DNA of 64,000 nt from Methylococcaceae bacterium (GTDB lineage Bacteria; Pseudomonadota; Gammaproteobacteria; Methylococcales; Methylomonadaceae): assembly GCA_041660045.1 (NCBI GenBank), contig JBAZXA010000003.1, positions 226,320-290,319 of the forward strand, read 5' to 3'. The notes beneath the pieces are model-generated. The model was not told where the DNA came from, did not search any database, and saw only the letters and a program-made list of their open reading frames with translations. Made by a program: the position numbers and the translations under genes. Shown here in pieces: positions 13,531 through 36,484 of the stretch (position 1 is its first letter; every line of letters begins with the position of its first letter).

Positions 13531-13783
13531 TAAGCCTCAATGTTTTAGGGCTGTGTTTGTTAATTTCAGTTGGCCTAGTTAATAGCTATTCGTTTGCCTT
13601 GTAAAGCATATCAGGCCAAATTAACAAATATTGATAGGGTAAAATAAGCTGTAGGCGCTTTGATGCTATTGTTTACTGCCTGATACGCAAAAACCTGTGT
13701 GGTGTTTACGCCCAAGCAGTAAAGCTGGATAGAACCCGCACCCTAAATACTAAGGTGTGGTGGGTAGCAAATATCAATTTCAG

Positions 13784-15445
13784 TTAGGCGTTAGTAGGGT
13801 CTGCAAATTTAAGCAAATTCCTAAAAATAACAGTCTTGTCACCGCCAAGCATAGGCTCCCAAGTTTCAGGGGCGGCATTAACATAGGATTGCATATCGGC
13901 ATCTAGTAAGCCATAAAACACTTCGGCGACAATACGTCCGCCAACCCAACCTAGCTGAGTTTTTGCGCCTATACCTGTAAGCATTTTCGTTTCATTAAAG
14001 TCTTTGTCACCAAAATGTTCAACCAAAGGTGCTTGCGCTTCCGCAAGAATATAAAACCAAAGCGGGGTGTCTTCGACCAGTTCAGGTTCTATGGGCAAAA
14101 ACTTAAAATCCCCACTTTTCTCACTGGGTTGGCGGATTACCATATGCTTTTTTTGTAAGATTTTACAAGGCAGCCCTTTTTCTATGAGTACGTTTGCAAT
14201 GGCCTGGCCACCTTGTATAAGGTAAGTATTTCCGCGTAAAAGATTAAGTAGGGCTAAAGATGGGCGTGGCGGTTCACCAACTTTATCTGGCAGGGTTTCC
14301 GGTGCAATGGCGGCGGCTGCTTGTTGCGTCGTTTGTTCCCCTGCAACCTCCTTGCGTGGCAAAACCGCTAATGGGTCTACTAGGGTTGGATCGAGCTTAT
14401 AAGCAAATTGCAGGCGGACATTGCCATCTGGGGTTCTATCTGCTGCTTGGCTTCGGTCTTCTTGAGGTTCAAAATTAATATCATGGGCTTGGTCTGGGAA
14501 AAACCTCCCCCAATGGTCTATCACTTGAGTACTGGGTACAGGGTCAAAACCTAGGAGGCTTTCTGAACCTGCCAAATCTGTTGGATCTCCGCTGGCTGGA
14601 AAAATATCAAAGCGATTTGTCGGCACATAATTCATGCGGTAGCCGGTTCTAACACCTGAATGGCCGAAACGGTAAGCCGCGGCAACAAATTCACGCGGTA
14701 GATTTCCGCGTTTATCTTCAGTGTATAAGGCATAACAACAAGCCCTATCATTAGGTTTTTTTGCTTGCAAATTGCTGAGTACAGCAGCTGAAATAATTCG
14801 AGGAAGAAAGTCTTCGGTGATGAGTTTTTGGTAACACCAGCGCACTTCATTTTGGGCCGATTCAAAAAGTTTGTTGGGGGTATTCCAGTCTTCTGGACTT
14901 AAGGTTTTAAGCTGATCAACAACAGCATTGTGATATTTAATAAAGGCCAAATGGATTTGGCTGACGATAGAGTTTTCATCATTACGTTTATCTCCGATGA
15001 TTGCTCTTCCTAACGGGTTTCTGAGCAGGTCTTTTTCTGCAACGTTTGTTGGCTCCCCAGGTAAATGGCCGTTTTTATAAAGCAATTTTACACCATCATA
15101 CATATAGGGTTGTGCGTCTGGGCCATCACCATATAGGCAATCTAAGTCTAGCCTGGGTGTTCTAAGATTAGTAGGTTGTGGGCCTCCTTTGCTAGAGTTT
15201 AGCGTAGAGGTGCTATCAAATGTTAAGTCATGATCGATAAATTGGCCAAAGTATGTATATCCGGCCGGGACTAATATATTTTCTTCTGGATCAGGGCCAT
15301 CTTTTACGGTATCTGCCTCACCTTTCATTGCCTGAGCAAGTCTGGCTAGGGCACGTGGGTTATAGGGATGTTTTCTGAGGGGTAATAATGCTGTGAAAGA
15401 TGCTTCATGTTTACCAACTGTACCATGGCCTAGCTCATTCATCAT
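13784..15445 (-). CDS. haem peroxidase of the peroxidase-cyclooxygenase (animal haem peroxidase) superfamily
   Basis: FGQFIDHDLT (distal His), GDKRNDENS and AAYRFGHS (proximal His). No obvious signal peptide. Confidence 0.8.
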   Translation of the reverse strand: MMNELGHGTVGKHEASFTALLPLRKHPYNPRALARLAQAMKGEADTVKDGPDPEENILVPAGYTYFGQFIDHDLTFDSTSTLNSSKGGPQPTNLRTPRLDLDCLYGDGPDAQPYMYDGVKLLYKNGHLPGEPTNVAEKDLLRNPLGRAIIGDKRNDENSIVSQIHLAFIKYHNAVVDQLKTLSPEDWNTPNKLFESAQNEVRWCYQKLITEDFLPRIISAAVLSNLQAKKPNDRACCYALYTEDKRGNLPREFVAAAYRFGHSGVRTGYRMNYVPTNRFDIFPASGDPTDLAGSESLLGFDPVPSTQVIDHWGRFFPDQAHDINFEPQEDRSQAADRTPDGNVRLQFAYKLDPTLVDPLAVLPRKEVAGEQTTQQAAAAIAPETLPDKVGEPPRPSLALLNLLRGNTYLIQGGQAIANVLIEKGLPCKILQKKHMVIRQPSEKSGDFKFLPIEPELVEDTPLWFYILAEAQAPLVEHFGDKDFNETKMLTGIGAKTQLGWVGGRIVAEVFYGLLDADMQSYVNAAPETWEPMLGGDKTVIFRNLLKFADPTNA

Positions 15446-16241: not shown

Positions 16242-16557
16242 ATGAATACCCACACAAATACTAAAAAACATCTTAAGTTTTATCTGACGTTAAGTTTTTT
16301 TCATTGATTATTGGAAGTGCAGCCATTTCGCCCAATGTGATGAAAATGATCAAGGGGCAGTCTTTACCATGACCAACGCTCCAACCGGCAACGCGGTGCT
16401 TATGTATAAACGCGATCAGGCCGGAACATTACAAGCCGGATTGAGCTTTTTTACGGTTGGTAAAGGGTCGGGAGGTCGTGAACCGGATTTTGGGTTAGGC
16501 AATGCGGGTGCATTAGTACTAAATGAGGCAACAGCCTGCGTTAAGCATACAGCCTAA
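16242..16557 (+). pseudogene. remnant of a beta-propeller (lactonase-like) secreted protein
   Basis: AVFTMTNAPTGNAVLMYKRDQAGTLQ...GKGSGG...GLGNAGALVL resembles the first blade of 7-bladed-propeller lactonase-family proteins. Only about 60 aa remain, and the upstream leader is out of frame. Confidence 0.35.
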
Positions 16558-16684: not shown

Positions 16685-16873
16685 ATGGAAACTAATACTG
16701 CCCGTTTAACTTTGTTGATCGACCCAGAAAAAAAACGGCAATTCGAGCAGATTTGCACCGCCCAGGATTTAACATCGTCTCAAGTAGTGCGCAAAATGAT
16801 CAGGGATTACATTGACCAGCATTCTGATTTAATTGACCTAAAAAAATTGGCAGAAGAACGCATTGACAGTTGA
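16685..16873 (+). CDS. ribbon-helix-helix (CopG/Arc-type) protein, antitoxin-like
   Basis: ARLTLLIDPEKKRQFEQICTAQDLTSSQVVRKMIRDYI shows the beta-strand/helix/helix pattern. The stop overlaps the start of the downstream GNAT reading frame. Confidence 0.55.
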   Translation: METNTARLTLLIDPEKKRQFEQICTAQDLTSSQVVRKMIRDYIDQHSDLIDLKKLAEERIDS

Positions 16874-17402: not shown

Positions 17403-18998
17403 ATGAATAAATCTGCTCTGCCCACACTTGAACAAACTGGTTTGGCTAGCTTAAAAGAGAACTGGAAAGCGGACTTACGGTCTGGTTTTCTGGTGTTTTT
17501 AATTGCTTTACCGTTAAGCCTTGGGGTTGCTATCGCTGCTGGCTTTCCGCCGTCGGCAGGCCTTATTTCCGCTATAGTCGGGGGTTTATTGGTGTCACGG
17601 ATTAGCGGCTCACACCTAACAATTAACGGCCCGGCTGCAGGATTAATAGTTGTTATATTAGCAGCCGTGCAAGCCTTGGGCGAAGGCGATGCCTTGGCTG
17701 GATACGGCTATACCTTGGCGGCAATTGTTGTCTCCGGTGCTTTACAAATAGTGATGGGGAAATTTAAGGCAGGCCAGTTAAGTGCCTTTTTCCCCGCATC
17801 CGTGGTGCATGGCATGTTAGCTGCGATTGGTCTGATCATCATTGCCACCCAAAGCCATGTTATGTTGGGTGTCACACCAGATTCCAGCAGCCTGTTTTCG
17901 ACTATCTTACAAATTCCGCATAGTGTGCTTAACATTGAGCCGGAAATTTTTCTTATCAGCTTTTTAAGCTTATTGATACTGGTTATTTGGCCGCTAGTCG
18001 GAAGCAACGTTCCAGCACCTATCATTGTAGTGCTGGTGGGTATGTTGTTCGCGTGGCATTTTGATTTGGGTCACGTTAGGGCTGCTAACGGATCGAAATT
18101 CCTGGTGTCGATTTCCGATAATTTTTCGGCCGACTTTTACTTCCCTGACTTCTCCAAATTTTTCACCGTCGCCTTTTGGGAAGCAGTTGTCAGTATCAGT
18201 TTGGTGGGCAGCCTGGAAACATTGTTGAGTGCTACAGCAGTTGATAAATTGGATCCTTATAAACGCACTTGTGATCTTGACCGTGATTTAAGCGCAGTGG
18301 GGATCGGCAATATGGTGGCTGGTTTTATAGGTGGCTTTCCCATGATTGCTGAAATTGTCCGTAGCTCAGAGAATGTTAATAATGGGGCAAAAACTAACTG
18401 GGCGAATTTTTTTCATGGCGTCTGTTTGTTACTGTTTTTAGTCTTGTTTCCAGGATTGATCCAGAGCATCCCCTTGGCTTCATTAGCGGCGGTATTAGTT
18501 GTTACCGGCTATCGTTTGGCTTCGCCCAAAGTATTTGCCAGGGTCATGGATGTTGGCAAAGAACAGTTGTTAATGTTTGTGGTCACCATTATCGGCGTGT
18601 TGGCGGTCGATTTATTGGCAGGCGTCGCCCTGGGCATAGTGGTAAAGCTGGCTATTAACCTTAAGCGGGGCGTTTGGCTTAGCAATTTGTTTAAGATTCA
18701 TTTTACCGTTCGGCAACCCGATAATAATACATTGCTGATCACGTTGTCCGGTTCGGCATTGTTTTCAAACTTCTTGCCGTTAAAAAATGCGCTTGCAGGC
18801 CTTGAACCCGGCAAAACGATTATTTTTGATTTTACAGACGGTTACCTAATCGATCATACCGTTATGGAATTTATCCACGATTTTAGTCTGGACTATGAAG
18901 CTCAGGGCGGACATTGTCAGACTATAGGTAAAGCGTTGGCAACCTCTTCTGATCACGCGCTAGCTGCACGCTTAATGACAGCGGATGATAGGCAATGA
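17403..18998 (+). CDS. SulP-family inorganic anion transporter with C-terminal STAS domain
   Basis: 531 aa with multiple TM helices. The N-terminus (DLRSGFLVFLIALPLSLGVAIAAGFPP) and the cytoplasmic STAS-like tail are typical of SulP. Confidence 0.85.
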   Translation: MNKSALPTLEQTGLASLKENWKADLRSGFLVFLIALPLSLGVAIAAGFPPSAGLISAIVGGLLVSRISGSHLTINGPAAGLIVVILAAVQALGEGDALAGYGYTLAAIVVSGALQIVMGKFKAGQLSAFFPASVVHGMLAAIGLIIIATQSHVMLGVTPDSSSLFSTILQIPHSVLNIEPEIFLISFLSLLILVIWPLVGSNVPAPIIVVLVGMLFAWHFDLGHVRAANGSKFLVSISDNFSADFYFPDFSKFFTVAFWEAVVSISLVGSLETLLSATAVDKLDPYKRTCDLDRDLSAVGIGNMVAGFIGGFPMIAEIVRSSENVNNGAKTNWANFFHGVCLLLFLVLFPGLIQSIPLASLAAVLVVTGYRLASPKVFARVMDVGKEQLLMFVVTIIGVLAVDLLAGVALGIVVKLAINLKRGVWLSNLFKIHFTVRQPDNNTLLITLSGSALFSNFLPLKNALAGLEPGKTIIFDFTDGYLIDHTVMEFIHDFSLDYEAQGGHCQTIGKALATSSDHALAARLMTADDRQ

Positions 18999-19128
18999 TT
19001 ATTGTGGCTTGAGTCATGCCATGAAAACTAGCGTATGACAAGCGCCATTAAAGTTACCCTGTCACTAAAAAACCTTAATTGAGAAGTTCATGATCCTTAG
19101 TTTAAACGCTTACCTTATAAAGCTTGGA

Positions 19129-22100
19129 TCAAACTTGCCCACCTACACCTTTAAATTTTTCAACAAAAGCGGCAATTTTTTGGAAGACACTTTGTTTTTT
19201 GCTTAAGTATTGCGGATTAAGCGGGCTCATTTTAGGCAGGATTGCGTTGAGCTCAGTGCCGTTTTCACTGGCATACTCACGTTTTAACGATGTGCTGATA
19301 TAACGTTTAGCGGCTTCTGCATTCAGGTTTTCAGCACTAATTAATTCTTCTGCTTCACGTTGTTGTTCAGCTTGGGCAAAGCTAAAGAAAGCATCAATAA
19401 TGCTGGCTTTGTCGATAATGTTGTCCAAGTTGGTTTGGTTAATAAAATCAACCAGCAAACTTTCTTTGGCACGGTTGCCTAAGCTGGCACGAATTAAACG
19501 GCGCACTTCTTCAACCAATGTCGCTTTATCTTTAAGCTTTTTATTGTGCTCGAAAATTAATTCCAGAATGTAATCCAGGTTGATCTCTTGTGATTTAAGC
19601 AGATCAACTTCAAACACCACATCATCCCAATCAATGCTAGAGGTATCTTTTTCGGCAGCAGATTTTTCACGGCGCAGCCAATCACGAATATCGTTATAAG
19701 TTGAACGGTAGTCTTGAATAGTGCGCTCGGCTGGTGTTTTTATCGCTTGCATAGCCACTAAGTCGGCATCGCTTAAATAGTGCTTAGCTTTAAAAGCCTC
19801 TACGGCTGTAGGGTCGGTTATATCTAAGCTTTGTAAGGCTTTTAAGCCCGCAAATTCGTCGTAGTTTTGCAGTACATTCTCAACCCGCAAATATTCACCA
19901 AATAATTTAGCGAAGTCTTTTTTGTCTTTTTCTTTAACGATTGTCTCAGGGTTAGGAAAATGTTGTTGCAACTCCGCCACCACCTCCAAATAACCACGCC
20001 GTGCTTCACCTGTTGCCACATCGGTAAAGCCTTGCATGTATTCCTTGTAGCTTTTCTCCAGCACCACGTTTTTAGTGTTGTTATCACCAAATAAGGTAAT
20101 GGCATCAATTGTGGCTTGCTCTAAATCGCGGAAGGTGACGATATTGCCAAAGGTCTTGGTGGCATCATAAATGCGGTTAGTGCGTGAATAGGCTTGTATC
20201 AAGCCGTGATAGCGCAGGTTTTTATCCACAAATAAGGTGTTCAGGGTGGGCGCATCAAAGCCTGTTAAAAACATACCTACCACAATCAGCAAATCAACTT
20301 CTTGATTTTTTACCCGCATGGCAAGGTCGCGGTAATAGTTTTGAAATTGTTTGCTATCAACGCCGTAATTGGTTTTAAACAGCGCGTTATAGTCCGCAAT
20401 GGCCACACTTAAAAACTCTTTAGCGCTGCTATCCATTGCTGAGAGTTCAAAGCTTTCATCAAGAATATCCCCTACCGCATCTTGCTCTTCATTGGCCGCA
20501 AAAGAAAAAATGGTGGCAATGTTAAACGTTTTATTATTACTGTCTTTTTGTAACTGCTTAAACGCCTCATAGTACAACTTGGCTGCATCCACACTGCTCA
20601 CGGCAAACAGGGCATTAAAGCCTTTACCATTGGCTTGCAGGCGATGCGTTTTTTGCCTAAAGTTGTTTAAGATGTACTGCGAAATTTCTCGAATACGCTC
20701 GGGGTGCAATAAGGCTAGTTTGTTTTCTGCCGCCGTGAGTTTCGTCTGATCTTGTTCGGTTTCAATCGCGTTAAACTGTGGGCGTACATCGTTGTAGTCC
20801 ACTTTAAATTTCAAGACTTTTTCATCGCGAATGGCATCAGTAATCACATAAGCATGCAACTCACGCCCAAACACGCTGGCAGTGGTTTCTGCACCCAAGG
20901 CGTTTTGTGGAAAAATAGGCGTACCGGTAAAACCAAACTGGTAGAATTTTTTGAATTTTTTCTTTAAGTTTTTTTGGGCTTCGCCAAATTGACTACGGTG
21001 GCATTCATCAAAAATAAAGACGACTTGCTTGTTATAAACGGCTAAGTCGCCTTCGCTTTTCATCAGGTTGTTGAGTTTTTGGATGGTGGTGACGATGATT
21101 TTGTTGTCATCCTTATCCAGGTTGCGTTTGAGGCCGGCGGTGCTGTCTGAGCCATTAACGCTTTCCGGCGAAAAGCGCTGGTATTCCTTCATGGTTTGGT
21201 AATCGAGGTCTTTACGGTCCACCACAAAAAAAACCTTATCAATAAACGCAAGCTCGGTCGCCAAGCGCGCTGCTTTAAAGCTGGTTAAGGTTTTGCCTGA
21301 ACCCGTGGTATGCCAAATAAAACCACCACCTTCAAGCGAACTCCAGTTTTTTGCCTGATAAGCACAATTTATTTTCCACAAAATGCGCTCGGTTGCGGCA
21401 ATTTGGTAGGGGCGCATCACCAGCAGCGTATTGCTGACATCAAACACAGAAAATGTAAGCAGCACATTCAACAAAGTATTTTTCTGAAAAAACGTCGCGG
21501 TAAAATCTTTTAAGTCTTTAATCAAGGTATTGTCTGACTTCGCCCAATTCATGGTGAAATCAAAACTGTTTTTATCGCGCTTGGTGGTATTGGCAAAATA
21601 ACGGCTATCGGAACCGTTGGAAATCACGAAAAGCTGCAAATATTTAAACAGTGAATTGTCTTTATTAAAACTCTCTTTACTATAGCGGTGTACTTGGTTA
21701 AAGGCTTCGCGTATGGCCACACCGCGTTTTTTCAACTCAATTTGCACCAAGGGCAAACCATTTACCAAAACGGTGACATCATAACGATTAGCCTGCGAGC
21801 CTTTTTGTTCAAACTGCTTAATCACCTGTACTTTATTACGGGCAATATTTTTCTTATCCAATAGGACAATATTTTGGATATGCCCATCATCAAAGACAAA
21901 ATCGTGGATATAGTCGTCATGAACTTTACGGGTTTTATCAATGCGGTTATCGCTAGGCTTATCTAAATATTCCACAACAAAACGCAGCCATTCACCCTCT
22001 AAAAACTGCACATTGTTCAGGGCTTGCAAAGCCACTCGCACATTGGCCAGCAGCTTCTCAGGCGTGTTTAAATCGGGCGCATAGTCATAACCCTGATTCT

Positions 22101-22230
22101 GCAAATCCTGAATGAATTCGCGCTCCAAATCGTATTCGCTTTGGTAGCTTTCGCTAACTTTATAGTCCTTTATGTATTTATCCAGAACGATGAAGTTATT
22201 AGATTCGGCAATGGTCTTATAGTCGGTCAC
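19129..22230 (-). CDS. hsdR: type I restriction endonuclease R subunit (type IC-like)
   Basis: 1033 aa. The N-terminal nuclease region includes VQIELKKRG. Helicase motifs GSGKT and DECH are present, with [15 protein letters not shown] following. From memory the N-terminus [21 protein letters not shown] resembles EcoR124I HsdR. Confidence 0.9.
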
Positions 22231-23063
22231 TGGTTTGATTCTCCGTATCCCTGTGCGAGTTCGCTTTCAATCTCTTGCACCGTTGGCAACTGTGACTGCA
22301 CTGACAAGGGAATATCTTTGGTGATGAGCGAACTCACCCCCATGGGCTTGTTGATGTCACGCAAGGCATATTCCACGCCATTTACGGCCAAGGGGTATTG
22401 CCGCCCAAGGAAGGCAAAGCCCTTGCCTAGCTCCAGCAAAAAGCGGGTGATCTGTGCCACCAGCTGGTTTTCGATATCGCGTTCAATCGCCTGTGGTGCG
22501 AGGGTCAGAAAATCGAATACATAAGGGTCTTTCAGGCTCTGTTGCACCAGTTCAGATTGGGGTGCTGGCAAAGTTTGAGCAAAATTGCCAATCGCCTTGC
22601 CCTCGCGCTCGTGAAAACGCTGCTCAATTTGCCACGCTAGCACCGTGCGGCTCCAGCCATGCTCGATGCAGGCCTGCGCGTACAGCAAAACCAGCTCCAC
22701 CGACTTGACCTTGGCCAACAAGGTGCGCACATGCCCCCACGGCATTTGTCCCACAGGCTGTGGGACAAATTCAAACTGCGGACTGAAGAAGGCATAAAAC
22801 TGCCGCATGGCAAACAGGCTAGTACGAGAGAAGCCCTTCATGCCGGGATAAGTGGCCTGCAAGTCCAGCGCCATTTGCTCCACTACCGCCGAACCCCAAG
22901 CGCGCTCGCGTTGCCACGCCTCCAGCTGGCGGCCAATGTCCCAATACAGGTTCAACAACTCCGTATTAACCGCAAATACCGCACGGGTTTGCGATGTTTG
23001 AATACGCTGTTTAATGACTGCCAGACCCTGACGATAATCGCTGTGGTGGGTAATTTCGCTCAT
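22227..23063 (-). CDS. DUF1016 (YhcG-family) protein lacking the PD-(D/E)XK nuclease core
   Basis: Collinear with the paralogue at 25773-26825 except for a missing block of about 67 aa. Start taken at MSEITHH, whose ATG overlaps the TGA of the RhuM remnant. The stop overlaps the hsdR ATG. Confidence 0.7.
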
Positions 23064-23423
23064 TCCTCTGTGTCCCATTTTTGCAGTAGTTTTTTCACTT
23101 CACGGTCGAAATCAGATTCGATGCGTTGCTGCTTGTTAAATTTTTCATATTCCGCAAAGGGTTTTGCCCTCAATCGCCCCATGGGCAGTGGTATGTTCCA
23201 AAATGGAACTCACCACATCTTCTTGCAGCTCATTACTTTCAAAAATGTTTTTGAGGTGCTTGGTAATAGCTGGGCGTTGCACGCCAAACAATTCAGCCAT
23301 ACGCTCCTGCGTTAGCCAGATAGTTTCATTACTGAGCAACACTTCCACTTTGATCGCGCCATTGGGCGCAGTGTAGAGCAGGAATTCCGTGGTTTGGTCT
23401 TGCAGACTTAGATGCTTGGACAT
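23060..23423 (-). pseudogene. RhuM-family gene remnant (internal deletion plus frame change)
   Basis: The N-terminal 88 aa (EFLLYTAPNGAIKVEVLLSNETIWLTQERMAELFGVQRPAITKHLKNIFESNELQ) match the RhuM N-terminus. A different frame encodes a typical RhuM C-terminus (PFAEYEKFNKQQRIESDFDREVKKLLQK). The core between them is absent. Confidence 0.6.
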
Positions 23424-23463
23424 AAGCCCTTTCCTTATACGAGCGTGCCAGAAAATTTAATCA

Positions 23464-24579
23464 TTAGTTTCCCACCTGCTGCCAAAAGCCATAGTTGTCT
23501 TTCAAGTGATCGAGCAATAATTTAACCGTCGCCTTCTCCGCTGGTGTCGGCTCTGCAACGGTTTCATTGGACAGCGTGCTATGGCTGGTAAAATTAATAA
23601 TTCTGCTCAGATAGAGCTGTTTGTCATTGGGCAACAGCTCCGCCCACTTAGGATAACCCAGAAAGCTGGCCGTTTTCTCGTAAAGGTTACGCAGCAGCGT
23701 GAAGTGATACTTTTCGACCTTATTTTCAGCAATCGCCAACTCAAGGGTTTGCTTCAAATGTAGATGATAGAAAAAGCTCTTGTTGGAATCGCCTTGCTTT
23801 TCAGTCAAGGCAAAAGTGCCATCTTCAAAACGCTCCAACATGTAGCAGGCTTTGCCATTCAGTTCATTGAATAGGACGTTATAAAACAGCGTGCTGTGTG
23901 TCGTGACGATAAATTTCAAGTCGGAATGGCTGGATTTAATCAAGCCCGCCAAATTGACTGCCAATTCAATCAAGTGATTTTCATCTAACGAGCTAACGGG
24001 ATCATCAATGAAAACGTATTCCAAATTATTAAAAGCTTCAGTTGATCGTTCGGAAGCTTCAGCAATGTTTAATTCGGAAATCATTTGCTCAATCAACGAA
24101 TGAAATACGCTCCAAATAAAATTACTTTCTTCACCTTTTGAAATTTTAATGTTTGATTCTTGCTCAAGATTGCCACGCTCAAATGAAAAGCTGATTGCCG
24201 AAAAATCCGAACTAAAATGCGGCGTTAATTTTTCATTGGTGTAGTGCTGGAAAATAGCGGTAATGTTCTGATCTTGGCCTTGCTCTTCCAGAACCCATCG
24301 AGTGAAAGCATTGGTATGGATTTTTAATTTCGGCTCGGCATCAAGCTGCAAATCATTATCCCAATAGAACAGATCTTCCGTAAACGCACTGTAATAAAGG
24401 ATTTTCTTTTGTGCTAACGCTGAGAATTGCGTGTCTTCATCACCATTTTTCGGCGAAACCAGTTCTTTGAATTCGCGAGAAAGCCGCGTTTTGCCCGTGC
24501 CATTAAAGGCATAGATCAGTTGCACCTTTTTATTGGCGTCTTTCAACAGCTGTGCTATTTCCGTTAGCGTCTTGCTCAT
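23464..24579 (-). CDS. prrC: PrrC-like anticodon nuclease (ABC-type ATPase N-domain + ACNase C-domain)
   Basis: Walker A FNGTGKT, Walker B/D-loop YVFIDDPVSSLD and TTHS. The C-terminal R297-x3-E301-x31-H333 spacing equals that of EcoPrrC Arg320/Glu324/His356 (from memory). The gene sits between hsdS and hsdR, as in the E. coli prr locus. Confidence 0.6.
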   Translation of the reverse strand: MSKTLTEIAQLLKDANKKVQLIYAFNGTGKTRLSREFKELVSPKNGDEDTQFSALAQKKILYYSAFTEDLFYWDNDLQLDAEPKLKIHTNAFTRWVLEEQGQDQNITAIFQHYTNEKLTPHFSSDFSAISFSFERGNLEQESNIKISKGEESNFIWSVFHSLIEQMISELNIAEASERSTEAFNNLEYVFIDDPVSSLDENHLIELAVNLAGLIKSSHSDLKFIVTTHSTLFYNVLFNELNGKACYMLERFEDGTFALTEKQGDSNKSFFYHLHLKQTLELAIAENKVEKYHFTLLRNLYEKTASFLGYPKWAELLPNDKQLYLSRIINFTSHSTLSNETVAEPTPAEKATVKLLLDHLKDNYGFWQQVGN

Positions 24580-24580
24580 G

Positions 24581-25792
24581 TTAGGCCGTTACCTCTTCAG
24601 GCTTGGGAAAGAGCAACAGCAAATCGCGGTAGTATTCGTATTGCTGCCTACGCAATTCAATTTCACGCGGCAAGCCTTCGGTGATGGAGTTCGTTAAGGC
24701 ATCGAATTTATCTAAGATGGCGACGATGCGGGCTTGTTCGGCGAGTGTTGGAATAGGAATACAGATTTTTGAAAACCCTTTAATCAACAGTGTGTTGACT
24801 TTAGTTCGGGCGACATACTTTGCTTTCTTGTCAATGAATGCAGCTGTTTGCATGCAATAGGAAATGAATTTCGGATTCATCGAATGGCGGAAAGCATAAC
24901 AGTGATCGTGAATAGCGACTTTCTCATTGCCAAGCCATGCGACGGCCTTGCCAACATCTTCTACGGTTTCTCCAACATCGGTGATTACAACGTCACCCGG
25001 TTCTGCGTAGCGCAATGTCGTTGCCATTTCCGCGCGAACTTGTGATAGCGCATGGGTGGTTGCAACACCATATCGAGTATAAATTTCGCCATAGTGGATG
25101 ACGCTGATGCCGTCATCCACATAATCCGCTTTGGTAAAACGTTTTCCGCGAATAAATTCGCCAAGTTCTCCCAAGGGTTTCCACTCCACTTTACCATCTT
25201 CAAAGCTTAATAACTGGTCGCGATAGTAGTTGTATTGTTTTTTCCGTGCGGTCAGTTCGGCGGTCAGTTCGGCGGTCAGTTCGGTGAAATTGTCCAAAAT
25301 TCGGACAATTTCACCTTGGATGTTGAGGGGTGGGATGGGAAAGCTATATTCCATTATTTTATCTTTATTACCACGAGGCATTTTCGCGCCTTTAGCATGT
25401 TGCATAGCGTAATCAAAGAATTTTTCATCAGTTAAAACCTGATATAAATACCGTGAATTTACCGTATCGCCAGTTAGATGAATAACCAGCACATCGCCAT
25501 TTGTCCCTCCAATACGATCAGCGTGCCATATCTTTTTTAGATAAGGACGAATATTGCCTATTAAGATGTCATTATCACAATACCCAGTTAAATTACCCCC
25601 AGTAGGCACATAATTGGATTCTGTTTTCCCTGCTCGATTTTGCAAGAGATTATCAACGCCTACATAATTTGTTTTATCTAGTCGGTCAGAATTAATGCGT
25701 GTTTTTGAATACTCCGCCACTTCCCCCAACGCCTTCCATTCCACCTCAACCCCGTTGAGCCTGTCCATGATGTTACTCATCTTCTCCTCCAT
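24581..25792 (-). CDS. hsdS: type I restriction-modification specificity subunit (type IC-like, (TAEL)x3 central repeat)
   Basis: 403 aa with two target-recognition domains, separated by a conserved central region containing TAELTAELTAEL and a matching C-terminal conserved region. The start may instead be the internal MSNIMD at 25780. Confidence 0.9.
   Translation of the reverse strand: MEEKMSNIMDRLNGVEVEWKALGEVAEYSKTRINSDRLDKTNYVGVDNLLQNRAGKTESNYVPTGGNLTGYCDNDILIGNIRPYLKKIWHADRIGGTNGDVLVIHLTGDTVNSRYLYQVLTDEKFFDYAMQHAKGAKMPRGNKDKIMEYSFPIPPLNIQGEIVRILDNFTELTAELTAELTARKKQYNYYRDQLLSFEDGKVEWKPLGELGEFIRGKRFTKADYVDDGISVIHYGEIYTRYGVATTHALSQVRAEMATTLRYAEPGDVVITDVGETVEDVGKAVAWLGNEKVAIHDHCYAFRHSMNPKFISYCMQTAAFIDKKAKYVARTKVNTLLIKGFSKICIPIPTLAEQARIVAILDKFDALTNSITEGLPREIELRRQQYEYYRDLLLLFPKPEEVTA
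25248..25283. repeat. three perfect tandem copies of a 12-bp unit (GCGGTCAGTTCG) inside hsdS
   Basis: Read directly from the sequence. On the minus strand it encodes TAEL-TAEL-TAEL. Confidence 0.95.
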
Positions 25793-26825
25793 TATAGCCT
25801 TGTAATTCCCGCTCTATGTCCTCGATGCTGGGTAGTTGGGTTTGCAGGTTGGTAGGCAGGTCTTCTAATAGCTTATATTCGGCAATGCCCATCGGCTGGC
25901 GGTTATCGCCCAAGGCGTATTCGGCAACGATTTTGTCTTTGCTTTTGCACAGCAATAAGCCAATGGTGCTGCTGTCCTGTTCAGTTTTTATCTGCCTATC
26001 TACTGCGGTCATATAAAAACCCAGTTGTCCTAAGTGCTCAGGTTTAAATTTCCCTGCTTTGAGTTCAATCACCACATAACAGCGCAATTTGAGGTGATAA
26101 AACAATAAGTCGATAAAAAATTCTTCTTCGCCCACTTTCAATAAGACTTGGCGACCTACAAAAGCAAAGCCCGCGCCCAGTTCTAACAAAAATTGCGTCA
26201 CATGCTGCACCAAGGCACGTTCAATTTCGCGCTCTTGTGCTTCATCCGTCAAACCCAGAAAGTCGAAGCGATAAGGGTCTTTGATGGATTCACGAGCAAG
26301 GTCGGAGTCAGGTTTGGGCAGGCGTTGCTCAAAATTAGTCACAGCATTGCCTTGACGCGCTATTAATTGGGTTTCGATTTGCATCGCCAGTATATTGCGC
26401 GACCAGTTGTGTTCTATGGCTTTGGCAGCGTACCAGCGACGGGTTTCCTGATTAGGTAGCTTATCCAGTAGTACCAGATTATGCCCCCACGGCAATTGTG
26501 CAACAGCCTGTTGCACAAACTCGGCATCTGGCCATGCCTCTGCAAAAGCACGCATATATTTTAGGTTGCGCGGCGAAAAGCCTTTCATCTGTGGGAAGGC
26601 AGTGCGTAAGTCGTGGGCAAGCCGTTCGATCACTTTTGCGCCCCAGCCTTGCTGATGTTGTCGGTTCAAGATGTCTTGCCCTATTTGCCAATACAATAAC
26701 ACCAGCTCCTTATTCACCTGCAATATGGCCTGTTGTTGGGCGGTGTGTATGCGCTGTTTTAAATCTTTGAGCCACTCAGTATATTGCTGTGGCATTGGTT
26801 CTAAGGCGGCGTGTTGATTGCTCAT
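25773..26825 (-). CDS. DUF1016 (YhcG-family) PD-(D/E)XK nuclease domain protein, full length
   Basis: 350 aa. It has the YhcG-type N-domain (LPWGHN, EHNWSRN) and a nuclease core FFIDLLFYHLKLRCYVVIELK. Confidence 0.8.
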   Translation of the reverse strand: MSNQHAALEPMPQQYTEWLKDLKQRIHTAQQQAILQVNKELVLLYWQIGQDILNRQHQQGWGAKVIERLAHDLRTAFPQMKGFSPRNLKYMRAFAEAWPDAEFVQQAVAQLPWGHNLVLLDKLPNQETRRWYAAKAIEHNWSRNILAMQIETQLIARQGNAVTNFEQRLPKPDSDLARESIKDPYRFDFLGLTDEAQEREIERALVQHVTQFLLELGAGFAFVGRQVLLKVGEEEFFIDLLFYHLKLRCYVVIELKAGKFKPEHLGQLGFYMTAVDRQIKTEQDSSTIGLLLCKSKDKIVAEYALGDNRQPMGIAEYKLLEDLPTNLQTQLPSIEDIERELQGYNGGEDE

Positions 26826-26827
26826 GG

Positions 26828-27433
26828 CTACAGCTCCTCGGTTTTAAATTCGCTATAGCCTTCATAGTAATAGCTCACATCAATGCCTTTCATAAACAGC
26901 GCACGGTCATGGATTTGGTCGGTTAAGGCTTGTTTGAGCAGTACTTTAATTTCAATGTCTTTCACGACACTGCGCTGCATGGCGGAGAGGTAATCCTCTT
27001 TATCGACTTGATTCCAATCCACCACTTGTTTGATTTGGCTTTTGAGTAGGAGGTCAAGCCAGATGCGGGTGGCGCGTCCGTTGCCCTCGCGAAACGGGTG
27101 GGCGATGTTCATTTCCACATATTTTTCGATGATTTCGTCAAAGGTGTATTGCGGCATGGCGTCGATATGTTTTAACGATACGTCTAAATACATCAGCGGC
27201 GCGAAACGGAAGCTACCTTTGGCGATATTTACATCGCGGAGTTTGCCAGCGAAGTTATAAATATCGCCAAATAAATAGGCATGAATAAAGGACAGTCCGG
27301 CGAAAGTGCCTATTTCCACCTTGGTAATATCGCCCGAGTCAAAAAGTTGCTTGGCTTTTTGTTTGCTGATTTTTTCTTCGGCTTTTGCCAGTTCGATTTG
27401 ATCTGTGATGTTTAATTTGTTTTCCAGAATCAT
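26828..27433 (-). CDS. fic: class III Fic-domain AMP-transferase (NmFic-like)
   Basis: Fic motif HPFREGNGRATR. The C-terminal helix SYYYEG matches the (S/T)xxxE(G/N) auto-inhibition motif. 201 aa. Confidence 0.85.
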   Translation of the reverse strand: MILENKLNITDQIELAKAEEKISKQKAKQLFDSGDITKVEIGTFAGLSFIHAYLFGDIYNFAGKLRDVNIAKGSFRFAPLMYLDVSLKHIDAMPQYTFDEIIEKYVEMNIAHPFREGNGRATRIWLDLLLKSQIKQVVDWNQVDKEDYLSAMQRSVVKDIEIKVLLKQALTDQIHDRALFMKGIDVSYYYEGYSEFKTEEL

Positions 27434-27689
27434 GTTGTGCCCTTTGGTGTGTCATGAATTTGGGATTTCAGCCATTCACGACCAGAACCAGATTTGAAGT
27501 ATTTTTCTCTTGCAACAGCTTCTTGTTCTGTATTGAAGGTTTCGTAATAAGCTATTTTCACGGGCTTATTATTGCTGTGTACTTTGCTCCATTACCACTC
27601 AAATGTTGTTGATAACGGTACTCAAGGTTATTGGTAAAACCCTTGTAATATGATCCATCATCACAAAGCAACACATATGTATAAAACAT
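27430..27689 (-). pseudogene. GIY-YIG nuclease family gene with a 1-nt frameshift
   Basis: Hand translation gives MFYTYVLLCDDGSYYKGFTNNLEYRYQQHLSGNGAKYT, then a stop after 5 more codons. The adjacent frame continues SNNKPVKIAYYETFNTEQEAVAREKYFKSGSGREWLK, ending in a TGA that overlaps the fic ATG. The span is 260 nt, which is not a multiple of 3. Confidence 0.65.
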
Positions 27690-27701
27690 GAGTTACGCCT
27701 C

Positions 27702-29255
27702 CTACCTGCCGGCAGGCAGGTCAATCTCCGCCACAATGGCATCAATCTCAGCGCGTAACTGGTCGATTTTGGCTGCCGTGGTTTTAAGCTCGGCATTAAG
27801 CTTATGTATATCAATCACTTCGCGAGTGTCTTTGGCTTCTACATAGCTGCTTACCGACAGGTTGTAGTCGTTGGCGGCTATCGCAGCGTGTTCTAAGGAG
27901 TGGGCAAAATGGTCAGCATCGGCTTTATTATCAAAAACCTCCATAATTTGCGCGATGTATTCATCGGTTAATACGTTGGTATTGGTTTGTGGCTTAAATA
28001 ACTTACTGGCGTCAATAAACTGGGTTTTGGTGTCGGTTTTGTGTTTGGACAGCACCAGGATATTGACGGCAATGGAGGTGCCAAAAAATAAGTTGGGGGC
28101 TAAGGCAATCACGGTTTCAATGTAGTTGTTATCCACCAAGTATTGGCGGATTTTCTGCTCTGCACCGCCACGGTAAAAAATGCCGGGGAAGCAAACAATC
28201 GCTGCGCGGCCTTTGCTGGACAAATAACTTAAGGCATGCAGCACAAAGGCAAAATCGGCTTTAGATTTGGGCGCTAACACGCCTGCGGGGGCAAAGCGTT
28301 CATCATTAATCAGGGTGGGGTCGTCGTTGCCAATCCAGTTCACCGAATAGGGCGGGTTGGAGACAATGGCATCAAACGGTTTTTCATCGCCAAAATGCGG
28401 ATCTAACAGCGTGTTGCCCAGCGCAATATTAAACTTATCGTAGTTAATATTGTGCAAAAACATATTCATACGCGCAAGGTTAAAAGTTGTGTGGTTGATC
28501 TCTTGGCCAAAGAAACCATCTTCAATAATATGGGCATCAAAGTGTTTTTTGGCTTGTAATAATAACGAGCCTGAACCTGCGGCTGGGTCGTAGATTTTAT
28601 TGACGCTTTTTTGCTGGTGCATGGCCAGTTGCGCAATCAGCTTGGACACATTTTGCGGGGTGAAAAATTCGCCACCTGATTTACCGGCATTGGCGGCATA
28701 GTTAGAGATTAAAAACTCGTAGGCATCGCCAAACAGGTCGATTTGGTTTTCGTGGAACTTGCCAAAGCTCAGTTTTTCTACGCCCTTAAGTACAGCGGCT
28801 AAGCGGATGTTTTTATCGGTAACGGTGTTGCCCAGGCGGTTACTGGTGGTATCAAAATCGGCAAACAAGCCTTTAATGTCTAATTCAGATGGATAGCCAT
28901 TGGCTGAGCTTTCAATGGCGGAAAATATCTTGGCTAAATCGGTGTTGAGGTTTTCGTTGTTATTGGCATTGGCGGCAACGTTGGCAAACAACTGGCTGGG
29001 GTAAAGAAAAAAGCCTTTGGTTTTAATGGCATCGTCTTTAATCTCTGTGGTGATGACATTATCGGGGAGCGCAGCATAATTAACGCTTTCATCATCGCCT
29101 TCAATGTAACTGGCAAAGTTTTCGCTAATAAACCGATAGAACAACGTGCCTAATACATACTGCTTAAAATCCCAGCCATCGACCGAGCCACGAACCTCAT
29201 TAGCAATTTGCCAAATTTGGCGTTGTAGCTCTGCACGTTGTTGGGTACTTGTCAT
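27702..29255 (-). CDS. hsdM: type I restriction-modification DNA methyltransferase subunit
   Basis: N-terminus [39 protein letters not shown] motif [10 protein letters not shown] and catalytic NPPY. Start trimmed to the ATG preceded by AGGA. Confidence 0.9.
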
Positions 29256-29966
29256 GGTGTTGTCCTGTTTTAATGCGTTTTGATAATTCATGAGATCATA
29301 AGCAAGTTAGCATTTTAATGGGCAATGGCGCTCTAATCTAATCACTTGTTGCAAACATAGTAGCCAAATATTTTACGGGCACTACCCTATAAACAAGACG
29401 AGTTTCTTAAAGCCTGCATAAGGCCAATTTTAACGCGATAAGCTTTGCTAATTTAGATGTGTTAAGTTTGGAGTTGCCTTACATGCTGTTGGCATGTGAA
29501 AACTTCTATATTCTATCATGCTGTGTTTGTTGATCGAGCGCTGCACCTGCTTACCTCGGCATATCCATAATCTCCTAATTAACGGGGCGTAATGACATTT
29601 TGCATGATGGCTTATGCATTTTCTTGTTGTTTCTAATTAATTTTTATTGACTTAGCGGTCGGTACGCGGCTTCCTGTGTCTTGACAGTAGACTAGAAAAG
29701 CGCTGATGTATTGGGATTAGTGACATGCGCCTGATCGTACTATTGCAATTAGCTTTGCTACGGGAACTAACGACGTTGATAAAAGCCTTTTCGCACATCA
29801 AACCAAGAGGTAACTTTTAGATGCTTATTTGTGCCCTATAATGTTTAGACGTCTTTGACGTTTCAGTCTGCAGCCGTTTACAGGTCGGCTGCCAGAAGGC
29901 TGATTTGTAAAAATTATTTGAAGTATGAAGTTAGTAGTTGGTAATACATATCAATAAATTATGTAT

Positions 29967-30240
29967 TTAGTCGTAACTATTGTGATTGCGCAATGGCTTG
30001 ACGACTTGCCTGCGGCTGTTCAGACCTTCCGGGAAAACGACTGGGTTTTCAGGTGTGATTTGAACAGGCTCCCCGCCTTTACGGGTAAGCAAAATTTCGC
30101 TTTTCAAGATATAGATGGTTTCTGTTTGCTCAAAGTCGGTGGGGAGCTAGGCTGCTTCTTGTTATTCCTATACCAATTGGCTACCCTAATTCCTTCAAAC
30201 AGTCTTCTTTGGGCTTATGCTCTACTCTGATTTCCGGCAT
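29967..30240 (-). pseudogene. degraded cupin (DUF861-like) gene abutting gyrB
   Basis: The minus strand starts MPEIRVEHKPKEDCLKELG and hits a stop. After frame changes it continues EQTETIYILKSEILLTRKGGEPVQITPENPVVFPEGLNSRRQVVKPLRNH, a cupin beta-barrel pattern. At least two frame disruptions are present. Confidence 0.4.
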
Positions 30241-30243
30241 CAC

Positions 30244-32676
<2,433 letters not shown>

Positions 32677-32700
32677 TTATTATTATGTTCCACGTGAAAC

Positions 32701-33774
32701 TTATAGCGGGTTTATGTGCCCTTGTTCCACGTGAAACATTTTATAGCTGTCTAACTGGCTTAAGTCGCCTAAATCTGTTTTGTTGGTCGCGGTTATAAAA
32801 ACTTGGCATTGCATGGCCGCCAAATAAGCCAGTAATTTTGCCCGGTTGAAAACATCAAGTTCAGCGGCAAAGTCATCTATTAATATACAGCCGGCATCAG
32901 ACTTTTCATTTAACAATAGCTGTACTTGTGCAAGCTTTAAGCTTAATACTAAAAGTTTTGCTTGCCCACGCGATACAAAATCCCGTGCTAAGCGCTCGCT
33001 TACCATCAGGTAAAAATCTGCCCGGTGTGGCCCGCTGCGGGTAAAGCCATATCGCAAATCTTTTTCTACATCGTCTTGTAAAATTTGCAGCAATGGCAAG
33101 CCAGTGTTCCAGCCGGGAAAAAAATTTATATCGATGTTATCGACAGACAAAAATTGATTAGCAATGCTTAAAAAAACAGGTTTAAATTTTTCTAGGTATT
33201 GTTGCCGGCAAACATTGACTATTGTACCGTAATTAAGCAATTCTTTATCCCAAACATTAAGTTGGCGGACAGATCTGGATTTTAATAAGGCATTGCGTTG
33301 GCTAAGGGCTTTTTTAAATTTACGCCACGCGGGCAAGAATTGCTCATCACTATTAAATACGCCCCAGTCTAAAAACTCCCGGCGCAGCTGGGGGCCGGCG
33401 TCTAACAGTTCGTAGCTTTTTGGATGGATAAGTTGTAACGGTAAAGCGTAGGCTAAATCTGAACGCTTTTGTTTGGTTTGTTTATCAACCCGAATGGCAA
33501 AATTTTTGCCGTCGAGTTTAATGCCCAGGTGGGAAACGCCATCGGCATGCGCTGTTTGGGCAGTCACTATGAGGTGATCCTGCCCGGTTGTGATGACGGT
33601 TTTGATGCTGGCGGAACGAAAAGACTTAGCCCGGCCTAAGATGTAAATGGCTTCTATAAACGAGCTTTTGCCGCTGGCATTTTCGCCAATCAAAAAATTG
33701 ACAGCCGGACAGGGTTGTAGGGTTTGTTTCTGGATATTTCTTACGGAGTGTATATCCAGCCTAATGAGGCCCAT
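32701..33774 (-). CDS. recF: DNA replication and repair protein RecF
   Basis: Walker A GENASGKSS, in the conserved dnaA-dnaN-recF-gyrB order. The C-terminus is KMFHVEQG. Confidence 0.95.
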   Translation of the reverse strand: MGLIRLDIHSVRNIQKQTLQPCPAVNFLIGENASGKSSFIEAIYILGRAKSFRSASIKTVITTGQDHLIVTAQTAHADGVSHLGIKLDGKNFAIRVDKQTKQKRSDLAYALPLQLIHPKSYELLDAGPQLRREFLDWGVFNSDEQFLPAWRKFKKALSQRNALLKSRSVRQLNVWDKELLNYGTIVNVCRQQYLEKFKPVFLSIANQFLSVDNIDINFFPGWNTGLPLLQILQDDVEKDLRYGFTRSGPHRADFYLMVSERLARDFVSRGQAKLLVLSLKLAQVQLLLNEKSDAGCILIDDFAAELDVFNRAKLLAYLAAMQCQVFITATNKTDLGDLSQLDSYKMFHVEQGHINPL

Positions 33775-33784
33775 AGCTGAATTA

Positions 33785-34885
33785 TTACAACCTCATGGGC
33801 ATGACTATGTATTTATACAACAGATTATTGGGTTCATCAATAAAACAGCTACTGCCGTTAGTTGCTATGGTCAATACTGCCAGTTCAGAATCTAGATTGC
33901 TGACCGCGTCCAATAAATATTGCGCATTAAAGGAAATCGATAAGGCATCGCCCATAAAATCGATAGCCAGTTCTTCTTCGGCCTCATCATGTTCAGGGTT
34001 ATGGGCGCTGATGGTAATGCTTTGGGCTGAAATATCCAGGGTAATGCCCTTAAATTTTTCATTGGATAAAATAGCCACGCGCGTGAGTGCTTCTTTTAAC
34101 GGTTGCCGTTGGATTAATAAGGGAGTTAAAAATTCTTGCTGAAATACTTTGCTAAAATCGGGGTATTTAGAATCAACTAACTTGGCCGAAAACACTAGAT
34201 TATTGATGGCAATGCGAATGTTGTTGCTTGAAAACTCAACTTTTATTTCAGCCTCTGGGTCATCTAGCAAACGGGCTAACTCTAACACGCCTTTTCTAGG
34301 CAAGATTATTTTTGTTTCATAGCCCGTAGGTTGGTCAAGCTGGTCTTCATAAATTGACAAGCGATGCCCGTCCGAAGCTACTAATTTTAGTTTACTGTTT
34401 GAAATATTCAGTAACAAGCCGTTTAAGTAATAACGCACATCTTGGTTAGCCATGCAAAAAACGGTTTTTTCTAAGGCCTTTTTTAATTTGCCAGCGTTAA
34501 TAACAAATTGGCATTCAAGTTCGGAATTAGGAAAATCAGGATAATTTTCTGCTGGCAAACAACTCAGTAAAAAACGGCTGCGATTGGCAATGAGTTTTAC
34601 TTTGTCTTCATGTTGTTCAAATTTTATTTGCGAGCCACTAGGCAGTAAACGGCAAATATCTAAAAACTTTCTGGCCGGAACTGTTATTGCGCCAGTCTCG
34701 GTGTGGCTGATATTAATTTTAGCGACAATTTGGATTTCAAGATCCGTGCCGGTCATGGTTAATTGGTTGTTGTCGACAACCATTAATACATTGGAAAGAA
34801 TTGGCATGGTTTGCCGTTTTTCTATAACGCTGACAATTTGCTGTAAAGGTAGCAAAATGTCTTCTCTATCGATAATAAAATTCAT
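33785..34885 (-). CDS. dnaN: DNA polymerase III beta sliding clamp
   Basis: 366 aa. N-terminus MNFIIDREDILLPLQQIVSVIEKRQTMPILSNVL and C-terminus YIVMPMRL. Confidence 0.97.
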   Translation of the reverse strand: MNFIIDREDILLPLQQIVSVIEKRQTMPILSNVLMVVDNNQLTMTGTDLEIQIVAKINISHTETGAITVPARKFLDICRLLPSGSQIKFEQHEDKVKLIANRSRFLLSCLPAENYPDFPNSELECQFVINAGKLKKALEKTVFCMANQDVRYYLNGLLLNISNSKLKLVASDGHRLSIYEDQLDQPTGYETKIILPRKGVLELARLLDDPEAEIKVEFSSNNIRIAINNLVFSAKLVDSKYPDFSKVFQQEFLTPLLIQRQPLKEALTRVAILSNEKFKGITLDISAQSITISAHNPEHDEAEEELAIDFMGDALSISFNAQYLLDAVSNLDSELAVLTIATNGSSCFIDEPNNLLYKYIVMPMRL

Positions 34886-35001
34886 AGTGATTTATTGATA
34901 AATTTAACCTATAGATCCATTGCCTAGACAGATAGCTGTCTTTTAAACCCTAGCATGGTGAGTAAAGCTGTGTTTAAACGGGGCGGCCGCACTAATTGAA
35001 C

Positions 35002-36315: not shown

Positions 36316-36484
36316 TTAGGATTTAGCCTGTAAAAAGGGTTACCATTTTTTAAAACTTGGCAGGGCATGCCACTATACAGCAATAAGACAATACGCTACA
36401 GAATTGACAGCGTAGCAAATTTATTTTAATATCCAGAGTCTTTTTTATCTGTTTTACTAATTTACTTATCCAGGCCAAAATCCT

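Follow-up and report, generated by a model that had tools for sequence, protein, structure and literature searches.

Why would a restriction-modification (R-M) operon hold a handful of unrelated genes between its subunit genes, and are such passengers functional partners of the system or tolerated hitchhikers? The question is raised by a locus of a Methylococcaceae bacterium (Gammaproteobacteria, Methylococcales; GenBank assembly GCA_041660045.1), which we analysed within a stretch of 64,000 nucleotides of contig JBAZXA010000003.1 (positions 226,320 to 290,319 of the forward strand), hereafter called the window. At 19129-29255, the hsdM, hsdS and hsdR genes of a type I R-M system are accompanied by prrC, which encodes a predicted anticodon nuclease, and by five extra genes or gene remnants. 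We consider it likely that the whole is a horizontally mobile type IC R-M operon that carries PrrC and, in two slots, a set of exchangeable cargo genes. Extra genes co-expressed in R-M operons were described by Makarova and colleagues in 2013 (PMC3632139), and type I loci with DUF1016, with RhuM plus GIY-YIG, or with Fic between the core genes have been listed (PMC9881135). Payne et al. 2024 built their PDC models from such embedded genes and found PrrC almost exclusively in type I R-M systems (bioRxiv 10.1101/2024.01.29.577857). The locus is a heavily loaded, partly decayed example of this already described layered anti-phage arrangement, to which it makes modest additions: a two-slot pattern, gene-precise swaps that keep the overlaps between genes, a nearly inviolate hsdS-prrC junction and the independent decay of passengers. 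Since type I operons bearing PrrC, Fic, DUF1016 or RhuM have already been catalogued, a single locus adds little; its value is that of a worked example of cargo turnover, which bears on whether passengers are partners or hitchhikers.

A first-pass annotation made from the DNA alone had described nine features in a fixed order on the minus strand, and the map of open reading frames (ORFs) and our family scans bear this order out. It runs from hsdM (27702-29255) through a GIY-YIG pseudogene (27430-27689), fic (26828-27433), a first DUF1016 gene (DUF1016a, 25773-26825), hsdS (24581-25780), prrC (23464-24579), a RhuM remnant (23060-23423) and a second DUF1016 gene (DUF1016b, 22227-23063) to hsdR (19129-22230). 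The core genes follow the type IC order hsdM, hsdS, hsdR on a single strand with the cargo interposed, and all five cargo genes and prrC lie on that strand between hsdM and hsdR, the placement from which guilt by embedding argues. The cargo occupies two places, one between hsdM and hsdS (slot 1) and one between prrC and hsdR (slot 2).

All three subunits match the EcoR124I prototypes, in agreement with the type IC assignment proposed earlier, and we place the predicted core in the EcoR124I/EcoprrI family. HsdM, the methyltransferase subunit, contains the Pfam domains HsdM_N and N6_Mtase (3.3e-117), matches TIGR00497 at 646 bits and EcoR124 HsdM (7BST_D) near end to end at 941 bits, and carries the motifs NPPY and DPAAGSGS; its frame can be extended to 29291, and the start conserved in a seven-locus alignment is MTSTQQ at 29255. 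HsdR, the restriction subunit, starts with GTG, comprises HSDR_N, SWI2_SNF2/ResIII, T1R_D3-like and EcoR124_C domains in Pfam (EcoR124_C at 1.9e-74) and aligns with EcoR124I HsdR (PDB 2W00) over residues 5-1033 at 1785 bits, with D..ELK, GSGKT and DECH legible in the translation. The specificity subunit HsdS (Pfam Methylase_S; 399 aa in the Logan gene call) aligns to EcoR124 HsdS (7BST_A) without gaps in its central and C-terminal conserved regions, the TAEL region included, and the length of these regions is the same as in the 404-aa 7BST chain. The target-recognition domains have diverged, and because they are unrelated to those of EcoR124I, the recognition sequence should differ as well. 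Within hsdS, at 25248-25284, Tandem Repeats Finder detects a perfect strandless repeat of 12 nt in 3.1 copies (100% matches, score 74; plus strand GCGGTCAGTTCG), which encodes the ELTA/TAEL repeats of the central coiled coil. Between EcoR124I and EcoR124II, one such unit gained or lost changes the spacer from N6 to N7 or back. The copy number of the TAEL element is what sets the recognition-site spacer in these two enzymes (PMC3874165); because unit number has this effect there, the window repeat would, by analogy, be a site at which slippage could readily alter specificity. From its two TAEL repeats, a bipartite m6A motif with an N6 spacer is predicted. EcoR124I and EcoR124II are plasmid systems, and EcoR124I has neither prrC nor embedded genes, whereas the window locus is chromosomal and has both.

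The gene between hsdS and hsdR had been called prrC-like in the first-pass annotation, and this identification holds: the gene at 23464-24579 is apparently intact, matches the PADLOC PrrC model at 1.7e-146 and occupies the position that prrC has in E. coli and in 80 related loci. Its predicted product of 371 aa combines an ABC-ATPase N-domain with a C-terminal RNase domain and shares 71% identity with a protein of E. coli strain B1 that is annotated as an anticodon nuclease and whose gene sits in an hsdM-hsdS-prrC-hsdR operon with neighbours that overlap or stand 1 nt apart. Relative to E. coli PrrC, whose NTPase motifs have described roles (PMC1484252), the equivalent of the Walker A lysine K46 is kept, as are the ABC-type NTPase stretches FNGTGKTRLS and VFIDDPVSSLD (Walker A and Walker B). 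R297, E301 and H333 align with the catalytic triad Arg320-Glu324-His356 (E. coli residues are numbered after Blanga-Kanfi et al., PMC1484252), and the tRNA-Lys recognition stretch 284-294 is identical at 9 of 11 positions (KQGDSNKSFFY versus KYGDSNKSFSY), Asp287 and Tyr294 included. We file the gene as a predicted PrrC because the lysine, the triad and this stretch are all conserved; a search by sequence found no solved PrrC structure. Compared with the 396-aa E. coli protein, the window PrrC lacks three insertions, of which the largest, 16 residues long, is N-terminal. The E. coli EcoprrI-PrrC locus (prrA-prrB-prrC-prrD, corresponding to hsdM-hsdS-prrC-hsdR) shares gene order, strand, type IC family and overlapping junctions with the window, but in the E. 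coli locus that we inspected (L163) neither slot is filled, while the window holds five extra genes or remnants.

How would this cargo be expressed? Most stop and start codons in the block overlap or stand no more than 12 nt apart, with all genes on one strand. A gap of 12 nt that contains an AGGAGG separates hsdM from the GIY-YIG gene, whose stop overlaps the fic start as ATGA (27430-27433); 2 nt lie between fic and DUF1016a; DUF1016a overlaps hsdS by 8 nt, the hsdS start (M5) being preceded by GGAGGA; and hsdS and prrC are 1 nt apart. Then follow a spacer of 40 nt from prrC to the RhuM remnant, an ATGA overlap of the former RhuM stop with the DUF1016b start (23060-23063) and a 4-nt overlap of DUF1016b with hsdR. 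The overlaps and short gaps are as the first-pass annotation gave them, except that the last, which it had as ATGA at 22227-22230, reads GTGA because the hsdR start codon is GTG. Tight junctions are not peculiar to the window, being the norm in every related locus that we inspected. This anatomy is consistent with co-transcription of the cargo with hsd, and a single transcript, started at a promoter within the conserved block of ~100 nt upstream of hsdM, probably covers all genes. This upstream block, common to prr loci (29256-29383, minus strand, in the seven-locus alignment), is the candidate for the operon's promoter region and includes a TAAAAT (29312-29317) that is conserved.

Alternatively, the cargo could be driven by internal promoters independently of hsd, the packing being mere compaction. 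Minus-strand promoter hexamers within prrC (24384-24355, with a TG, and 23627-23600) and hsdM (28084-28057) would fit this explanation, as would the gaps of 40 nt and 66-81 nt around the RhuM remnant and the Shine-Dalgarno-like sequences that GIY-YIG and fic each have of their own. However, the scan returned 20 promoter-like sites, all of them 9-of-12 matches, versus 22.2 +/- 4.8 in shuffled sequence, and 12 terminator-like matches versus 14.8 +/- 4.2, so neither is in excess. Pattern scanning and folding found no good terminator-like hairpin between the genes; after hsdR the pattern scan for a terminator came back empty, and the sequence 18990-19135 folds no better than its shuffles do (z = -0.5). 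Independent promoters and terminators between the genes, which had been named at the outset as evidence that would count against a single transcription unit, therefore do not rise above chance in the sequence scan, and given also the single strand, the overlapping or short junctions and the same packing in every related locus inspected, we regard independent expression as rather improbable.

Both apparently intact passengers are in slot 1. The fic product is a putative AMP-transferase that scores 309 bits against the NCBIfam model NF046029 ProtAdlyltaseNmFic (cutoff 230), 3.4e-104 against PADLOC PDC-S04, 5e-95 against E. faecalis Fic (EfFic, 5NV5) and ~1e-67 against NmFic of N. meningitidis. 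Its Fic motif, HPFREGNGRATR at residues 112-123, follows the pattern HxFx(D/E)GNGRxxR, and a C-terminal SYYYEG (residues 187-192) aligns with the same inhibitory motif in 5NV5. Class III Fic proteins are defined by an inhibitory helix with (S/T)xxxE(G/N) on the same chain (PMC3667792), and the class III assignment proposed earlier is upheld by this motif and, as NmFic-type, by the equivalog cutoff. NmFic and EfFic are likewise single-domain proteins of ~200 aa with HPFxEGNGR and a C-terminal SxxxEG, but they have been studied as stand-alone regulators or toxins, whereas the window Fic is embedded in an R-M operon. NmFic is auto-inhibited and targets GyrB, which it AMPylates at Tyr109 (PMC3667792, PMC12894286). 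We considered whether a GyrB-targeting Fic lies close to gyrB, which adjoins the block, for a reason, and take this as coincidence. DUF1016a, the second intact passenger, is a candidate nuclease of the YhcG family with a PD-(D/E)xK fold, with full-length domains (DUF1016_N 4.8e-47; YhcG_C 9.6e-64 over 2-157 of 157 positions), a PDC-S02 match in PADLOC at 2.8e-170 and the motif IDLLFYH...VVIELK.

The other three of the five passengers are damaged, as had been claimed, and we mapped the lesion in each. The GIY-YIG gene, which has its own AGGAGG, runs into a stop after 43 codons; in a three-frame translation it is split into two frames by a frameshift near 27590, and the Pfam GIY-YIG domain (1.2e-15) is found only once the two are joined. 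The RhuM remnant (PDC-S05 in PADLOC, 2.7e-32) consists of 88 N-terminal codons (ORF 23145-23423) and, out of frame with these, the final ~30 codons, which extend to 23060. Compared with the intact gene of locus L004 by blastn and in three frames, it has lost ~688 nt internally, leaving incomplete the Virulence_RhuM domain, which occupies residues ~73-326 in a protein of ~346 aa and which the full-length L004 protein matches at 1.4e-101 in Pfam. DUF1016b, also of the YhcG family, shows a clean in-frame gap of 201 nt (67 codons) with GG microhomology at its edges when aligned to the L002 and L011 genes; the deletion removes exactly the D...ExK segment of the PD-(D/E)xK core that both relatives possess, and leaves YhcG_C positions 1-55 of 157. 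Because it is only 49% identical to DUF1016a, DUF1016b appears to be a separate acquisition. The GC content of the island (0.44) is likewise mosaic, with 0.54 in DUF1016b, 0.37 in the GIY-YIG gene and 0.42-0.48 in the other genes, which supports independent origins of individual cassettes. The locus therefore offers a compact test construct, in which intact Fic and DUF1016a stand beside natural null alleles of RhuM, DUF1016b and GIY-YIG.

Might the damage instead be an assembly or sequencing artefact that hides intact passengers? The window apparently stems from a metagenomic or short-read sample, the sole other copy (L001, L082) goes back to a single run, SRR18595301, and a single-base frameshift such as that in the GIY-YIG gene is a typical assembly error. 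Yet the Logan assembly of SRR18595301 (L001) has the identical frameshift and both deletions, the frameshift lies outside any homopolymer run, and deletions of 201 nt and ~688 nt with clean breakpoints relative to several full-length relatives are implausible as read errors. An artefact is therefore very unlikely indeed, and we treat the lesions as real.

But is the loading of two slots with such genes particular to this genome? A scan of species-representative genomes with PrrC found a relative encoded in at least 577 of them, and we retrieved 80 loci for comparison, which come from Proteobacteria, Firmicutes, Bacteroidota, Chlorobi, Planctomycetes, Verrucomicrobia, Cyanobacteria and Actinobacteria. 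In 80/80, matches to HsdS and HsdR flank PrrC, and a match to HsdM does so wherever the contig reaches. Cargo fills slot 1 in 18 of 74 loci and slot 2 in 33 of 79; in 10 of 73 it fills both. Insertions between hsdS and prrC, on the other hand, are very rare, with L071 as the single clear case. Clustering of the cargo ORFs yields 21 DUF1016 genes, 17 of them in slot 2, 18 RhuM genes and eight class III Fic genes, every one of which is in slot 1. Rarer are Bro-N (five), KilA-N (three) and Fic-HTH (two) genes and two singleton RelA_SpoT-like ORFs. Because RelA_SpoT, Bro-N, KilA-N and Fic-HTH ORFs occur in other loci, prr operons as a group draw on more cargo families than the three that the window shows, although the window is itself among the three most loaded of the loci compared. 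Cargo remnants occur in at least eight loci (L002, L003, L005, L015, L041, L051, L063 and L070), and the recurrence and turnover of passengers proposed at first reading are evident across the 80 loci as repeated gain, loss and decay of the same families. A plasmid collection yielded nothing but type IC systems without cargo and, at 79% identity, a single Azotobacter locus of the form hsdS-(hypothetical protein)-hsdR.

The full cargo order of the window recurs only in the second assembly of the same sample, L001. The first-pass annotation had named absence of the order from other type IC loci as evidence against its reading; this does not apply to sub-orders, which do recur, in Methylomonas, Methylicorpusculum and Advenella loci. 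The nearest relatives, Methylomonas sp. TEB and M. defluvii (L002 and L003; PrrC 92-93% identical, 83-93% DNA identity to the window), have the order hsdM-fic...hsdS-prrC-RhuM remnant-DUF1016 (full length)-hsdR; the Advenella locus (L070) has hsdM-fic-DUF1016-hsdS, and L027 has one DUF1016 gene in each slot. Since the RhuM wrecks of L002 and L003 contain in-frame stops and have breakpoints that differ from the window's, RhuM decay was at least partly independent.

Several side observations concern cargo in these other loci. The two small RelA_SpoT-domain genes, alarmone-synthetase-like, lie in slot 2 of L020 (11091-11678) and in slot 1 of L030 (7784-8446). In Methylomonas sp. TEB, slot 1 holds ~2.2 kb of extra DNA after fic (L002, 6555-8872) with a 176-aa ORF that has no Pfam match; just before hsdS (8738-8824) it includes a duplicated hsdM 3' fragment, 83% identical to HsdM residues 496-524, which resembles what a recombination of two hsd loci would leave behind. 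In a Methylococcales metagenome-assembled genome (L051, 7547-7660), the start of a short ORF between hsdM and fic, MSNSKTIIVPNEEIRVH, matches the N-terminus of the KilA-N protein of L011; this further cargo remnant supports frequent cassette decay.

The junctions of the related loci indicate how cargo is exchanged. In the loci inspected, the hsdM 3' end with its AEIEG-acidic tail overlaps the start of the next gene by ATGA or GTGA, and the hsdR start overlaps the stop of the preceding gene, whichever gene it is in either case. The same RhuM tail, ...GGACA(C/T)AGAGGAATG, borders on hsdR in L004 and on DUF1016 in the window, and since one sequence adjoins different neighbours, the insertions are gene-precise. 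Gene-sized cassettes would thus be inserted, replaced and deleted in the two slots with their start/stop overlaps preserved. Integron-like attC sites were considered at the cassette borders and rejected, as each border falls on a start or stop codon and we saw no repeat common to them. The GIY-YIG gene appears to have arrived in another way. Its entry point is marked by a breakpoint at 27721, beyond which no other prr locus is homologous to the window; from there, 17 nt before the stop codon of hsdM, a palindrome (27701-27720, no strand; inverted repeat I22; CCTACCTGCCGGCAGGCAGG), the AGGAGG and the GIY-YIG gene replace the usual hsdM tail, which ends AEID-LPAGR in the window versus AEIEG(E/D).. 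elsewhere. Because none of the 80 related loci has a GIY-YIG gene at this position, it is probably a recent, differently made insertion, of whose mode the palindrome may be the footprint.

Similarity to other loci at the DNA level (blastn) extends from 29356-29383, ~100-130 nt upstream of hsdM, to 19101-19131, and because shared DNA ends there, the mobile unit is the operon together with its candidate promoter region. The flanks are as first described, with a SulP permease gene on one side and a decayed cupin gene next to gyrB on the other. The adjacent gyrB-recF-dnaN-dnaA cluster (window 30244-40250), with yidC and mnmE beyond, places the block on the chromosome near the origin. The retrieved flanks of the Methylomonas relatives contain no GyrB or SulP match; the loci of these close relatives sit in other contexts, which argues for horizontal transfer. 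We also noticed that in Acidovorax sp. Leaf191 (L019) a prr locus lies ~870 nt downstream of gyrB (3858-8767). The spacer there is unrelated, its ORF, a candidate that looks MazG-like, being dissimilar to the window's gyrB-hsdM interval, and we take the shared neighbour as coincidence and not as a common hotspot.

Our proposed explanation accordingly begins with the acquisition of the operon in the origin region (dnaA-dnaN-recF-gyrB), at a site immediately downstream of gyrB. As a first line of defence, HsdM2S would methylate host DNA and HsdR2M2S would cut unmodified incoming DNA. PrrC would provide the second: the Hsd enzyme keeps PrrC latent, and its inhibition by T4 Stp activates tRNA-Lys cleavage (PMC1484252, PMC3874165, PMC12707154), by analogy with which the Hsd complex most likely keeps the window PrrC in a latent state until a phage anti-restriction factor disables the enzyme, whereupon freed PrrC would cut tRNA-Lys. 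Slot 1 would now hold the recent, already frameshifted GIY-YIG gene besides intact class III Fic and DUF1016, and slot 2 two wrecks, RhuM with ~688 nt lost and DUF1016b without its core. Fic is probably an auto-inhibited AMP-transferase that, like NmFic, would AMPylate GyrB once its inhibitory helix is displaced and so arrest the infected cell, and the fold of DUF1016a suggests DNA cleavage. Both are candidates for a defence role, in which they would add further layers.

Several observations weigh against this explanation. With regard to arrival, no empty site, integrase, tRNA or target duplication marks the event. Exact-protein look-ups of PrrC, SulP and GyrB returned only contigs of the same run, or nothing; in a metagenome scan with GyrB the nearest matches were 83%, 79% and 74% identical, and none of the 80 loci from this GyrB scan matched SulP or any of the hsd and cargo queries. 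In agreement with what had been reported from the sequence, the 64-kb window contains no tRNA, no ORF of integrase size lies next to the block, and the flanks have no direct or inverted repeats better than chance pairs. Neither GC content nor tetranucleotide distance sets the island apart from the remainder of the window; only single cassettes stand out. With regard to expression, two junctions are loose, the 40 nt past prrC and the 66-81 nt of RhuM wreck, and the GIY-YIG frameshift breaks the coupling into fic, which has its own AAGGG upstream. With regard to function, E. coli B was not protected from T7, T5 or T4 by a PDC-S02 (DUF1016) representative, a native host from which a PDC-S04 gene had been deleted showed no measurable change, and RhuM (PDC-S05), the sole cargo family with a positive phage test, is destroyed in the window.

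Do the passengers matter to the host at all? They could be selfish or neutral hitchhikers, tolerated by a well-expressed and often-transferred hsd operon in which only R-M and PrrC count. The inactivation of three of five passengers here, the frequency of remnants among relatives and a cargo content that varies even between the closest loci all fit such tolerance, as do the association of Bro-N, KilA-N, RhuM and Fic/Doc with phages or mobile elements and the negative published tests, one each, of PDC-S02 and PDC-S04. On the other hand, loci from distant phyla carry members of the same few families in the same slots, and Fic and DUF1016a have remained intact with all catalytic motifs present. 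Moreover, in a published test a RhuM (PDC-S05) representative lowered T7 and T5 plating ~1000-fold, and other genes embedded in type I loci, such as TgvAB and PrrC, are proven defences. On balance, hitchhiking is a possible but doubtful account of the cargo, and we prefer the reading of a mobile operon whose intact passengers may contribute to defence. A bolder version would make the operon a two-slot platform in which one HsdMSR guard restrains Fic, DUF1016 and RhuM as well as PrrC and releases each upon anti-restriction. If so, a single guard would arm several different suicide or arrest effectors, and the ORF-precise, overlap-keeping swaps and the in-frame DUF1016b deletion would reflect selection for translational coupling and stoichiometry with hsdS and hsdR; we think this quite improbable, more so even than internal promoters.

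Finally, we would like to place the mobile operon with its two slots into the context of systems described by others. The window cargo matches exactly the PDC-S02, PDC-S04 and PDC-S05 models of Payne et al., on the same strand between core hsd genes as in their survey. Because systems with pseudogenes were excluded there, the window locus, with three of its five passengers broken and two DUF1016 paralogues in different slots, would have been filtered out. In the V. cholerae VPI-2 island (PMC11411939), an active type I R-M operon is interrupted, as is the operon of the window, by unrelated genes; there, these are defence genes that form a complementary layer. These genes, tgvAB, encode a proven two-protein type IV restriction system of the GmrSD-like kind, whereas the cargo of the window consists of candidate effectors of the Fic, DUF1016, RhuM and GIY-YIG families.

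The surroundings of the block hold further decayed and unusual genes. Directly downstream of gyrB (29960-30243) lies the cupin remnant, a Cupin_3 (EutQ-like) gene broken into three frames that scores 27.1 bits after stitching, and from there to the hsd upstream block (29384-29960) stretch ~670 nt of AT-rich sequence with no ORF longer than 49 codons. On the other side, left of SulP, are two paralogous 527-aa vanadium-haloperoxidase-like genes (VCPO_N plus PAP2; 8476-10059 and 10603-12186), which together with a gene of the animal-haem-peroxidase family (13784-15445) form an unusual peroxidase cluster at 8476-15445. Two adjacent 62-aa ORFs on the plus strand (16369-16557 and 16685-16873) lie upstream of SulP, the second with a match to the ribbon-helix-helix family RHH_9 in the Logan gene table.

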